Shown: piece after piece, positions 11,462 through 26,400 of the stretch | How the letters are laid out: every line of letters begins with the position of its first letter | Position numbering within the stretch: the stretch's first letter is position 1 | Assembly (NCBI GenBank): GCA_964576645.1 | Contig: CAZNWR010000002.1 | Span: 1 to 39,924, forward strand | DNA: 39,924 nt | Reading direction: 5' to 3' | DNA from: an uncultured Enterobacteriaceae bacterium | GTDB lineage: Bacteria; Pseudomonadota; Gammaproteobacteria; Eutrophobiales; Eutrophobiaceae | The notes under the pieces: generated by a model | Databases searched by the model: none | What the model saw: only the letters and a program-made list of their open reading frames with translations | What the model was told of the DNA's origin: nothing | Position numbers and translations under genes: made by a program

Positions 11462-12679
11462 TCAGGTGGAGAGGCTCATCAATTCCCTGAACAATTCCAC
11501 GTACACCCCAGCCGCGCGTTCCCAACTGAAACGCCCGGCAGCGGAAGTACGGCCGTTGCGGGCCAGCCTGGACGCGAGCGCTGTATCGTCCAGCAACAGG
11601 CGGATCGCGCGCGCCAGATCCTGAGGATCGCCCGAATGCGCAAACAGACCGGTTTCTCCGTCCACAATGACGTCGCGGACAACGTCAAGATCCGACGCGA
11701 TAACGGGACAACCGCAGGCCTGGGCCTCGACCATCACCAGACCCAGCCCCTCCCGGTCACCGCCCGCGGCCTCGACAAAAGGAAACACCGCAATGGCGGC
11801 TGACTGGTAGTGTGCTGCCAGCGATTTCTGCGTAAGCGCACCGAGGAACGTGACACGCGGCCCCAGGTGCAAACGCGCCGCGTGTGCCTCAAGGGCGCCC
11901 CGCTGCGGCCCGTCACCGATAATGTACAAATGGATGTCCGGATGCTCGGGCACAAGCGACTGTAAGGCATCCAGTAGAACCGGGACGCCCTTCTTTTCCA
12001 CCAACCGGCCAACGAAGAGCAGGCGGCGCGGGATACGCGGCAACCGGTTCTCCGGCGGTACAAACAGCGATTTCGTGTCCACGCCCATGGGCGCCACCCG
12101 CAGGCAGTCCCTGCGGGCTCCCAGAGCCAGTGCGTGCCGCACCATGGCATCGCTCACGACGGCAACAACGTCCGCATTGCGCATCACCCAGGACTTCAGT
12201 CTCCCGGCAAGGCCTCCGCGAAATGTGTAAAGGTCCGCTCCGTGGGCCGTACAGACTACCCTTACGTCCCTGCGCAAGACACGCTTGATGAATACGGCAA
12301 CCACGCCCTGCGGCAGGATCCAGTGGGCGTGAATGATTTTGAAATTACCTCGCGCAAGGACGCGCAGGCAGGCGATAAGCTGCGCAATCACGAAAAACGG
12401 CACCTGCAGAAAGCGCAGTGGATTGCTCCTGAGCTTTGCCGGGATACCGCCGTCATAGGCCAGTGTTTCCAGGAACACAGGCAGGTAACGGTAGCGGTAA
12501 ACGTCAACGTCATCCAGTCGTTCCCGTGTCAGAGCGCCGGCAACATGTGGCGCCAGCACGGTAACGTCAAATTCCGATGCTACCCGCCGGCAGAGTTCGT
12601 GAACAAAGACAGGTTCGGTGTCACCCTCCCGGCGCGGATAGGTGGAAGTAATAACCAGAAGGCCCGGTTTCGACGGCAT
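11462..12679 (-). CDS. GT4-family (GT-B) glycosyltransferase
   Basis: 405 aa. LLFVGRLVEKKGVPVLLDAL ... EGLGLVMVEAQACGCPVIASD is the typical GT4 E-x7-E region. Convergent with galE (24-nt gap). Confidence 0.8.
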   Translation of the reverse strand: MPSKPGLLVITSTYPRREGDTEPVFVHELCRRVASEFDVTVLAPHVAGALTRERLDDVDVYRYRYLPVFLETLAYDGGIPAKLRSNPLRFLQVPFFVIAQLIACLRVLARGNFKIIHAHWILPQGVVAVFIKRVLRRDVRVVCTAHGADLYTFRGGLAGRLKSWVMRNADVVAVVSDAMVRHALALGARRDCLRVAPMGVDTKSLFVPPENRLPRIPRRLLFVGRLVEKKGVPVLLDALQSLVPEHPDIHLYIIGDGPQRGALEAHAARLHLGPRVTFLGALTQKSLAAHYQSAAIAVFPFVEAAGGDREGLGLVMVEAQACGCPVIASDLDVVRDVIVDGETGLFAHSGDPQDLARAIRLLLDDTALASRLARNGRTSAAGRFSWERAAGVYVELFRELMSLST

Positions 12680-12789
12680 GGAATGGCAGTTTGGCGATCT
12701 CGAACCCCGGGAAACTCGGGCCTAAGGCCCCGGGCTCCGCTTTGGCGCCGGCGCCATGGATACCAGGGCGACAAACCATTCCTTACGGT

Positions 12790-25316: not shown

Positions 25317-26400
25317 CCGGCTCCTTCCAGGTAAACATGGCGGTAATCGCGTAGTTCCAGACCGCGCCCGCGACTGCACCCAGCATGCCCGCCAACCACC
25401 AGGTAACTCCGGTCTCGAATAACCAGCCGGCCAATGCAACGTTGATCAGCGCGCCGAGAAAACACGCGAGATAGAAACTGATGAGTCCGCGCAGAAATTT
25501 AACTCCGCGCAATCGCCGCTCCCGGTAGGTGAAGGTATTATTGAGCACGTAATTGCTGGTCATGGCGATCACCGTGGCAATAGCCTGGGCGGGCACGAAT
25601 GCGGCGGTAAGAAGCCTGTGCAACAACCACAACACGAAGAGATTCACGGCCACGCCGCTCAATCCTACTGTTGCAAAGGAGATAAACCTCGAAGGGAAGA
25701 GCCTTCCTGCCGCCTTGTGCATCAGCATTACCAGGTAGTCCCATACCACACCTGTGCTCAGCTTGCTCTCCCCCTCCATTCGCACACGCATCGCGTACGG
25801 AATTTCCTCGCAACGCAGCGGTTCCCGGGAACTTGCCAGTATATCGAGCAGGATCTTGAATCCGCGGCCGCTGAGACGACGCATCACGCTGTTAAACGTT
25901 CCGCGCGTGAGCATGAAAAACCCGCTCATGGGGTCAGACACACGGACACCGGTAGCGAGCCTGCACATCAAGGTCGCGGCCTGACTGATCCAGACGCGCA
26001 TTCGCGACAACTCACCGGTGCTTCCCGAGGCTACATACCGGCTGCCAATCACCACGTCGGCTGTTCCTGATTTCAAACGTTCGAGCATTGCCGGGATAAT
26101 GGATTCGTCGTGCTGCAAGTCCGCATCCATGACGCACACGTACGGCGAAGATGTAGAAAGAATTCCCTCAATGCACGCCGACGCCAGACCGCGACGCCCC
26201 AGGCGCTGAATACCACGCACCCGTGGGTCCGCGGCCGCGATATCCCACACTGCTTCAATGGTACCGTCGGGAGAATCGTCATCGACAAATACCAGCTCCC
26301 AGGAACAATCCACGAGCACCGCCTTGAGAGCATCGTGCAGACGGCCTACGTTTCCCCGTTCCGAGAAGGTAGGGACAATGATTGAAAGTTCAGCGGTCAA
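25309..26400 (-). CDS. GT2 (DPM1/polyprenyl-phosphate glycosyltransferase-like) fused to a C-terminal GtrA-like 4-TM domain
   Basis: 363 aa, TTG start. LSIIVPTFSERGNV ... LVFVDDDSPDGT ... VMDADLQHD. The C-terminal ~125 aa (FISFATVGLSGVAVNLFVLWLL ... TSNYVLNNTFTYRE ... WNYAITAMFTW) show the GtrA pattern. Confidence 0.75.
   Translation of the reverse strand: MTAELSIIVPTFSERGNVGRLHDALKAVLVDCSWELVFVDDDSPDGTIEAVWDIAAADPRVRGIQRLGRRGLASACIEGILSTSSPYVCVMDADLQHDESIIPAMLERLKSGTADVVIGSRYVASGSTGELSRMRVWISQAATLMCRLATGVRVSDPMSGFFMLTRGTFNSVMRRLSGRGFKILLDILASSREPLRCEEIPYAMRVRMEGESKLSTGVVWDYLVMLMHKAAGRLFPSRFISFATVGLSGVAVNLFVLWLLHRLLTAAFVPAQAIATVIAMTSNYVLNNTFTYRERRLRGVKFLRGLISFYLACFLGALINVALAGWLFETGVTWWLAGMLGAVAGAVWNYAITAMFTWKEPVA

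Follow-up and report, generated by a model that had tools for sequence, protein, structure and literature searches.

Why should two type IVa pilin genes be surrounded by genes for polytopic membrane proteins that recall protein O-mannosyltransferases of the human endoplasmic reticulum (ER)? The question is raised by a 39,924-nucleotide stretch of DNA (herein referred to as the window) from an uncultured Enterobacteriaceae bacterium (assembly GCA_964576645.1, contig CAZNWR010000002.1), for which a first-pass annotation, made from the sequence without database searches, had proposed an undescribed system of pilin O-glycosylation. The sugars on pilins influence how the pilus works, how well cells resist phages and how they evade immunity, and the known systems rely either on Wzy_C-type O-oligosaccharyltransferases or on the single GT-C enzyme TfpW. 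We consider it probable, while keeping real doubt, that this locus forms an island for periplasmic O-glycosylation directed at the pilins, in which two independent modules, each pairing the synthesis of a lipid-phosphate sugar with GT-C transferases, flank the pilin genes pilA1 and pilA2 and draw on polyprenyl-phosphate sugars. The gene content, the family membership, the conservation of essential residues and the synteny described below are direct observations.

Every gene of the array, from the sensor kinase gene pilS to a gene for a GT4 glycosyltransferase, lies on the minus strand. The order is pilS, pilR, a GT2::GtrA fusion, a first DUF2723 gene (paralogue 2), two genes for Pfam-less polytopic proteins of 608/610 aa (X610b and X610a), a second DUF2723 gene (paralogue 1), pilA1, pilA2, a gene for a 660-aa membrane protein (T660), a gene for a 287-aa GT2 and the GT4 gene; only galE, which is convergent, is on the plus strand. 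The genes, strand and coordinates of the first-pass annotation all hold, and each sequence motif that it quoted (DDGYFV...AHPPGYPL, YFLDDFFNL, RPLSLATFAL and FVNLLLHLL) is found. Its description of the whole array as having short or negative gaps does not: from pilS to GT4 the gaps are 4, 48, -8, 297, 27, 146, 252, 185, 144, -8 and 110 nt, several of them thus within 110-297 nt, and the array is compact, yet not uniformly tight in its spacing. The scanned open reading frames (ORFs) of the window include no Wzy_C/PglL protein, initiating phosphoglycosyltransferase, Wzx or pilBCD, in agreement with that annotation.

The two DUF2723 proteins link the locus to TMEM260. Paralogue 1 (17122..19134, minus strand, directly upstream of pilA1) and paralogue 2 (23265..25316, minus strand, overlapping the stop of GT2::GtrA by 8 nt) score 98.9 and 88.8 bits, respectively, against PF11028 in a Pfam search with a gathering cut-off of 24.2 bits. 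A profile of both proteins with 18 relatives matches human TMEM260 (9rql_A) at E=4e-50, residues 18-452 aligning with 30-471; the homology extends past the N-terminal Pfam domain and takes in the GT-C core and the luminal Rossmann-like domain. Replacing D52, H67, R264, Y267 or D441 of the human enzyme by alanine abolished its activity, D441 is assigned as the catalytic base, and acceptor peptides bind in extended form to the TPR domain (preprint 10.64898/2026.03.17.711096). In a pairwise alignment these five residues correspond, in the same order, to D44, H59, R251, Y254 and D426 of paralogue 1, and paralogue 2 has the same five at the same alignment columns; D44, H59 and R251 are invariant in all 20 aligned relatives, and Y254 and D426 nearly so. 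A periplasmic location of the C-terminal domain fits because two of its cysteines are invariant across the 20 relatives, and the C-terminal 60 residues give weak TPR matches only (CTPR3 at 2.3e-4 by profile, the PrsT TPR at 2.4e-3). By the Pfam score, the homology to 9rql_A and the five residues, the two proteins are members of the TMEM260 family, the assignment first made by eye. A neighbour-joining (NJ) tree places them in two separate orthologous sub-groups, paralogue 2 with L001_2965 and L005_5786, and therefore the duplication is old and has been retained.

Two enzymes are predicted to supply the donors. GT2::GtrA (25309..26400, minus strand, 48 nt after pilR) joins a Glycos_transf_2 domain (PF00535, 4.5e-27) to a C-terminal GtrA_DPMS_TM domain of four transmembrane (TM) helices (PF04138, 1.6e-20) and aligns over its full length with the dolichol-phosphate-mannose (Dol-P-Man) synthase of P. 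furiosus (5mlz_A, E=2.2e-54, 4-358 against 24-372); its top NCBIfam match is PgfS (5.3e-20, under the cut-off). The 287-aa GT2 (12790..13653, minus strand, overlapping the stop of T660 by 8 nt; Glycos_transf_2 at 2.1e-25) ends in two TM helices, matches the ArnC structures 9bhc and 8vxh at 2.4e-14 and, in NCBIfam, AglJ (2e-36), PpgS (3e-24) and ArnC (1.4e-17), all under the equivalog cut-offs, and is best described as ArnC/GtrB/AglJ-type. Their homology to Dol-P-Man synthase and to ArnC, AglJ and PpgS leads us to regard both as polyprenyl-monophosphate sugar synthases, as had been proposed for them; GT2::GtrA is predicted to make a polyprenyl-phosphate hexose, whose sugar is probably mannose. 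Of the remaining sugar genes, GT4 (11462..12679, minus strand; Glycos_transf_1 at 6.3e-40, Glyco_transf_4) encodes a presumably accessory cytoplasmic glycosyltransferase, and the galE-like UDP-hexose 4-epimerase (10451..11437, plus strand; Epimerase at 3.8e-63) is a possible sugar supply.

In the AF2 model of T660 (13646..15628, minus strand; pLDDT 89.3), about 11 TM helices lead into helical repeats at residues 416-634. Foldseek places it with AglB, STT3 and ALG3 (probability 1.0, E>=1.8e-3) as well as with TPR proteins, its profile finds TPR proteins only in the Protein Data Bank (PDB), and 18 of 28 relatives have TPR matches in Pfam. The pair D41-D42, directly after TM1, is invariant in the 28 relatives, as are two cysteines in the TPR region, a conservation with which a periplasmic TPR domain fits. 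The first-pass annotation had called this protein TMTC-like. The membrane domain of the window protein has no match in Pfam or NCBIfam (for PMT_2 and TMTC_DUF1736, in a Pfam search at E<=1), and none of the 28 family members matches PMT_2 or TMTC_DUF1736; membership was therefore rejected, and what stands, by the model, is an architectural analogy, a GT-C membrane domain followed by a C-terminal TPR. That annotation had also set TfpW apart as a contrast, which probably does not hold. A preprint (10.1101/2020.04.19.049825) describes TfpW as having 11 predicted TM helices, an essential DDX in periplasmic loop 1 and a periplasmic C-terminal TPR, with its gene immediately downstream of pilA; T660 resembles it in the DD after TM1, in its approximately 11 TM helices, in its C-terminal TPR and in the position of its gene immediately downstream of pilA. 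By this analogy the T660 half of the locus is probably related or analogous to the described TfpW kind. The idea that the three GT-C families of the locus (T660, DUF2723 and X610) are related to one another was considered and dropped: no pair matched significantly in hhalign, T660 with DUF2723 reaching a probability of 16% over 50 columns around a G-x-P-x-G-x-PL loop and the remaining pairs less than 1%.

How general is the linkage to pilins? A DUF2723 profile scan of 185,579 species genomes yielded 79 loci (designated, like the other loci below, by L numbers), whose flanks were surveyed by ORF calling and phmmer. Within the fetched flanks, pilA or pilSR is present in 13 of the 22 closest loci (DUF2723 score >= about 340 bits, plus the partial L039) as compared with 2-3 of the 57 that are more distant; in the NJ tree, the members linked to pilins group together. 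The order sucC/pilS-pilR-GT2::GtrA-DUF2723(x1-2)-pilA(x1-2)-T660-GT2-GT4 is shared by L002-L007 and L010: the Gammaproteobacteria metagenome-assembled genomes (MAGs) L005, L006, L007 and L010 have the order of the window, and the JGI metagenome contigs L002-L004 (44% identity) read sucC / pilS-pilR-GT2::GtrA-DUF2723-[Spermine_synth membrane protein]-DUF2723-pilA-pilA-T660-GT2-GT4-epimerases. The arrangement pilA-T660-GT2 recurs in five distinct syntenic MAG loci, and a sucCD-pilS-pilR backbone is kept in L002-L010, L087 and L089. In Burkholderiales MAGs (L016-18, L020, L039, L041, L080) the arrangement is pilA-GT2-X-GT2::GtrA-DUF2723, and GT2::GtrA lies immediately upstream of DUF2723 in the gammaproteobacterial and the Burkholderiales clades alike; elsewhere pilSR adjoins DUF2723 (L008, L042), or DUF2723 is convergent with two pilin genes (L070, L073).

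The T660 homologues lead to the same position from the other side. All five of their loci that we collected (L087-L091, 34-36% identity) have pilA upstream and a GT2 of ~286-306 aa immediately downstream, among them the Thiogranum MAG L087 with a homologue at 35% identity. Three of these loci (L087, L089, L091) are without any DUF2723 module, and the backbone of L089 matches that of the window (sucCD-pilSR-pilA-T660-GT2...suhB-spoU). Since T660-only loci keep the cassette, we regard pilA-T660-GT2 as the conserved core and GT2::GtrA with DUF2723 as an insertion between pilR and pilA. GT4 follows T660-GT2 in L002-L007, L010 and L091, does not adjoin the cassette in L087 and L089, and lies several kb off in L088 and L090; galE is adjacent in L006 as well, and other epimerases are in L002. 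The first-pass annotation had itself named a linkage confined to this genome as grounds for giving up its reading; the linkage recurs in L002-L007 and L010, in L087-L091 and in Burkholderiales, and an order that recurs in independent MAGs is more than chance. Searches of plasmids by tblastn gave zero matches for T660 and one weak Parabacteroides match for DUF2723.

The pilins of these loci offer a candidate acceptor site. Both window genes encode type IVa pilins: pilA1 (16420..16869, minus strand; Pilin at 1.3e-18, N_methyl), which is major-pilin-like and has GGTTAGKYV in the alpha-beta loop, and pilA2 (15773..16234, minus strand, ATG at 16234 and stop at 15773; Pilin at 2.4e-18, N_methyl), which has GGTSSGHYV. 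Just ahead of the first beta strand, the motif G-[GSN]-T-[TS]-x-G-[KH]-Y occurs in 11/11 pilins of gammaproteobacterial DUF2723-linked loci and in 0/3 pilins of T660-only loci (which read VVTQQDGKYV, LSFTKSGKYV and MGNLVGKYT); the comparison, of the window, L002, L005-L007, L010, L088 and L090 with L087, L089 and L091, is a small and phylogenetically non-independent sample, in which L088 and L090 are near-duplicates. The sequon proposed for human TMEM260 also ends in G/A-G-G-x-x-T/S (preprint 10.64898/2026.03.17.711096), a loose resemblance only, which suggests the motif as a candidate site. A strict pairing of one DUF2723 copy with one pilin copy is ruled out, as the counts are uncorrelated across loci.

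Upstream in the array are pilS (27770..29377, minus strand; 6TM_PilS at 1.4e-36, HisKA, HATPase_c) and, 4 nt after it, the sigma-54 response regulator gene pilR (26449..27765, minus strand; Response_reg, Sigma54_activat at 1.3e-70, HTH_8). Upstream of pilA1, at a distance of 96 nt from its ATG, the sequence TGGCACGAAAGCTGC at 16979-16965 (minus strand) has one mismatch to TGGCAC-N5-TTGC; sigma-54-type matches are not above chance window-wide, and it is because of its position and the adjacent pilR that we name it a promoter candidate for pilA1. Terminator-like hairpins on the minus strand follow both pilin genes, at 16333..16350 after pilA1 (GCTGCTCAAAACGGCGGC and then the T-run CTTTTTTTTT) and at 15729..15751 after pilA2 (GAAGGCCACGTAAAGTGGCCTTT, with 9 pairs, then TTTGTTTTGT). 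The same layout of pilin, terminator and accessory gene is found in Pseudomonas pilin-accessory cassettes (PMC11841053).

Between the two DUF2723 genes lie X610a (19281..21113, minus strand) and its tandem paralogue X610b (21141..22967, minus strand), which share 92% identity. Neither matches Pfam or NCBIfam, nor any PDB sequence. The AF2 model of X610a (pLDDT 84.7, pTM 0.89) finds only GT-C structures among its top Foldseek matches in the PDB (AftD, AglB, ArnT, Pmt4 and EmbC, with probability ~1.0, E 1.7e-3 to 7e-2 and TM-score ~0.4), Asp48 after TM1 is invariant, and 2/17 relatives weakly match GT-C_AftD. All five polytopic proteins of the locus are GT-C candidates, as the first-pass annotation held; its count of five is qualified in that X610a and X610b are near-identical copies of recent origin. 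A stretch of 1609 nt (19366-20974 and 21220-22828, the copy standing 1854 nt on) is 100% identical between their genes, which diverge in the first ~45 codons, the last ~25 codons and the flanks. Such a pattern suggests that the tandem paralogues were recently duplicated or underwent gene conversion, and it may instead stem from the assembly of a MAG contig. An exhaustive profile search returns 817 representatives at 50% identity for E<=1e-30 and 3867 for E<=1e-3, so that the idea of an extremely rare family, suggested by the 16 relatives of a word-indexed search, was abandoned. The family shares the motif HDYSYFLP...NGP..VPWFTP after TM1, and relatives twice stand beside sulfatase or FGE-sulfatase genes (L084-L086).

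This position near the DUF2723 genes is a variable slot, occupied by the X610 pair in the window and by a GT2 with an X610 gene in L008. Elsewhere it contains Spermine_synth polytopic proteins of ~660-760 aa (L002 7960-9960, L005 7768-10041), Sulfatase+GDPD fusions of 884-912 aa (L001 7320-10004, L007 7268-9919, L008 14560-17298) or a TPR-sulfotransferase of 659 aa (L010 14422-16398). From their domains these proteins may confer non-sugar modifications on the pilin or its glycan (phosphoglycerol-like, sulfate or aminopropyl), and the slot recalls the pilin phosphoform transferases of Neisseria. Within the pilSR-DUF2723 locus of L008 there is also a 701-aa TPR protein (12394-14499, minus strand), whose C-terminal region, from reading the sequence, resembles glycosyltransferases of the SPY/OGT type (GT41). 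In Synechococcus elongatus, a GT41 Ogt encoded beside pilA glycosylates the pilin (PMC9306852).

We propose a mechanism on these grounds, in which the pilin acceptor, the identity of the sugar, the site and the order of action are all inferred from sequence. In what would be the older and widely conserved cassette (module 2), the ArnC/GtrB-type GT2 would charge undecaprenyl phosphate with a monosaccharide at the cytoplasmic face, and after flipping T660 would transfer the sugar to the pilin in the periplasm by the logic of TfpW, with its DD motif in the first periplasmic loop and the substrate held by the TPR domain; GT4 and galE would supply or extend sugars. Module 1 would be the insertion between pilR and pilA, with GT2::GtrA making a polyprenyl-phosphate hexose, probably of mannose, and the two anciently duplicated TMEM260-family enzymes glycosylating Ser/Thr of the membrane-anchored pilin, either at different sites or as a pair. 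The candidate acceptor site would be G-[GSN]-T-[TS]-x-G-[KH]-Y in the alpha-beta loop, and the X610 proteins of the variable slot might add or extend a further sugar.

Beyond the array, a 77-aa ORF directly upstream of pilS (29374-29607, minus strand) has an N-terminal TM helix followed by CxxC...CC, and Pfam-less ORFs of 70-86 aa occupy the same pre-pilS position in L002, L003, L087 and L089. On the other side, positions 53-8588 form an island of 45-51% GC (58-62% elsewhere) with genes for a GT2, a GT4, a Sulfotransfer_2 protein, a 338-aa ORF without assignment, two GT2s of ~380 aa and an ABC exporter (6891-8588) that scores equally for MsbA and PglK, under both cut-offs. The island looks like a horizontally acquired cluster for the assembly and flipping of a sulfated glycan. 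It was dropped as a component of the system because related pilin loci are without it, and a tRNA-linked island was ruled out, as the window has no tRNA.

Several observations weigh against a pilin-directed island. Most of the wider DUF2723 family, for which a single query returned 843 scored bacterial hits, has no pilin link (Latescibacterota, Nitrospirales, Vicinamibacterales), and specificity for pilins is therefore no inherent property of the family; an Armatimonadota MAG (L083, 7927-21284) even has seven DUF2723 paralogues in a row on one strand, unlinked to pilins. Among the closer loci, L009, L014 and L082 carry GT2::GtrA-DUF2723 with no pilin within 10 kb, L008 has pilSR-DUF2723 and a flank without a pilin, and all related loci come from uncultured MAGs. 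Homologues of X610 elsewhere are orphan genes unrelated to pili. The fold assignments of T660 and X610 have Foldseek E values of 1.7e-3 to 1e-1 and TM-scores of about 0.3-0.4, and the likeness of T660 to TfpW was judged from described features and gene position; the TfpW motif YX6PFX7P of periplasmic loop 4 is not reproduced exactly, T660 having Y280-x6-P287 in the loop preceding a conserved FHDDF, without the PF...P continuation. To these we add the small pilin-motif sample described above and the fact that pilA loci are known insertion hot spots, so that some of the cargo may be incidental.

Part of this evidence would also suit a general periplasmic protein O-glycosylation, akin to O-mannosylation, whose targets include or mainly are minor pilins, PilY1-like adhesins or other envelope proteins, and whose place in the pilSR/pilA neighbourhood results from co-regulation or descent. 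Neisseria PglL and actinobacterial Pmt are broad-spectrum precedents, human TMEM260 reads extended peptide sequons through its TPR rather than one protein, and the three pilin-free DUF2723 loci are close ones. We nevertheless think this unlikely, since pilA is directly followed by T660-GT2 in every locus examined, several lineages carry the DUF2723 module at exactly the point between pilR and pilA, and the locus conserves no further gene for an obvious secreted target. To much the same low degree we credit the possibility that the GT-C proteins act on a non-protein acceptor (O-antigen, core/lipid A, exopolysaccharide or another glycolipid) in a three-component seroconversion of the Gtr/Arn type, pilA being a recombination hot spot that gathers glycan cargo. 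Systems of GtrA, GtrB and a GT-C protein classically modify O-antigen (PMC11127046); galE, GT4 and the low-GC GT2/GT4/sulfotransferase/ABC island flank the locus, O-antigen-like genes follow T660-GT2 in L087 and L091, and the X610 relatives are unlinked to pilins. Against this, the TMEM260-family luminal domain is kept together with the equivalent of the D441 base and, by weak matches, the TPR region that binds peptides, pilA-T660-GT2 is conserved and the island on the left flank is not, L089 has T660-GT2 beside pilA without other glycan genes, and TfpW offers the precedent of a GT-C/TPR protein that acts on the pilin from this very position.

A narrower variant, which overlaps the reading we prefer and which we hold to be the least probable of those considered, makes T660 a GT-C O-oligosaccharyltransferase for a preassembled undecaprenyl-pyrophosphate oligosaccharide, TfpO/PglL-like in function and PglB/AglB-like in fold, the glycan being built by GT4 and other glycosyltransferases and flipped by an ABC or Wzx protein. 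AglB and STT3 are indeed top Foldseek matches, but the ranking among GT-C proteins at E>=1.8e-3 is weak. Genes for glycan assembly or export follow the cassette in L087 (ABC2 Wzm/Wzt, GT11 and GT2s), L090 (a Polysacc_synt flippase) and L091, and the window has its PglK/MsbA-like ABC protein at 6891-8588; yet the ABC island is not conserved, the scanned window ORFs hold no initiating phosphoglycosyltransferase, and the sole invariant partner of T660 is an ArnC/GtrB-type GT2, an enzyme that makes monophosphate-linked monosaccharides.

Within the pilin-directed reading, a more far-reaching hypothesis concerns the DUF2723 family itself, and we advance it tentatively, with somewhat less confidence than the island as such. 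Judging from the sequences, bacterial DUF2723 proteins may act as protein O-hexosyl (mannosyl) transferases guided by a sequon; in these proteobacteria their native substrate would be the type IV pilin, with G-[GSN]-T-[TS]-x-G-K-Y as the candidate site and the fused Dol-P-Man-synthase/GtrA protein as the source of the donor. This would give a large bacterial family its first function and the metazoan TMEM260 pathway a prokaryotic antecedent, and the variable slot would diversify the modification of the pilin, plausibly under phage pressure. The literature searched contains no paper that ties DUF2723/TMEM260 homologues or DPMS-type enzymes to pilins, and a full-text search found DUF2723 mentioned in the human TMEM260 study only, which bears out the earlier remark that no bacterial pilin system built on DUF2723 has been described. 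If the reading as a pilin-directed island is right, environmental Gammaproteobacteria widely carry a pilA-[GT-C/TPR]-[ArnC-type GT2] cassette, which extends TfpW-style chemistry to other sugars; bacterial relatives of TMEM260 gain their first concrete substrate and donor hypothesis; O-mannosylation by metazoan TMEM260 and Dol-P-Man has a bacterial counterpart in which the donor synthase adjoins the transferase; and new sequon-specific O-glycosyltransferases become available for glycoengineering.

Among known systems, human TMEM260, an ER O-mannosyltransferase for the IPT domains of plexins, cMET and RON, shares with the DUF2723 proteins the Pfam family, the five residues and a donor enzyme of the Dol-P-Man-synthase type, and its C-terminal helical repeats may have an equivalent in their weakly TPR-like C-terminus; the window proteins differ in being periplasmic, in the undecaprenyl carrier, in a presumed pilin acceptor and in their two paralogues, their activity being a prediction. 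The actinobacterial Ppm1/Pmt pair (PMC5882110) likewise joins a polyprenyl-phosphate-mannose synthase to a GT-C protein O-mannosyltransferase acting on Ser/Thr outside the cytoplasm; however, Pmt belongs to GT39 (the PMT family) and not to TMEM260/DUF2723, and is a broad-spectrum enzyme of Gram-positives with no known link to pilins. The Gtr-type GtrA/GtrB/GtrC systems and the Citrobacter pentofuranose systems combine a polyprenyl-phosphate-sugar synthase, a small domain of the GtrA family and a GT-C protein (PMC11127046), but their acceptors are O-antigen repeat units rather than proteins and their GT-C families are others. The Pgf system of S. mutans (PgfS, a GT2; the membrane glycosyltransferases PgfM1/M2; the epimerase PgfE; PMC5856776) brings a GtrB-like GT2, polytopic transferases and a GalE-like epimerase to bear on surface adhesins; it is Gram-positive, its targets are the adhesins Cnm and WapA, and it is not known to involve a TMEM260-family member or a pilin.

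Other systems act on pilins themselves. PglL and TfpO (PilO) glycosylate type IV pilins in the periplasm, and tfpO lies downstream of pilA, but they have the Wzy_C fold, of which the scanned window ORFs hold no example, and use oligosaccharide donors linked to undecaprenyl pyrophosphate. The TfpW system, which arabinosylates group IV pilins of P. aeruginosa, has a polyprenyl-monophosphate donor, genes for the biosynthesis of decaprenylphosphoryl arabinose (DPA) and a GtrA-like helper, PsPA7_6247. The donor enzymes in the window are ArnC- and DPMS-type GT2 synthases, unlike the DPPR synthase and DprE1/DprE2 of TfpW, and no such D-arabinofuranose donor gene is present among the scanned window ORFs; nothing in the TfpW system corresponds to the second, TMEM260-family module. 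That GT-C enzymes can glycosylate pilins from lipid-phosphate sugars is already known, and what we predict to be new in this locus is the recruitment of a different GT-C family and the arrangement in two modules.

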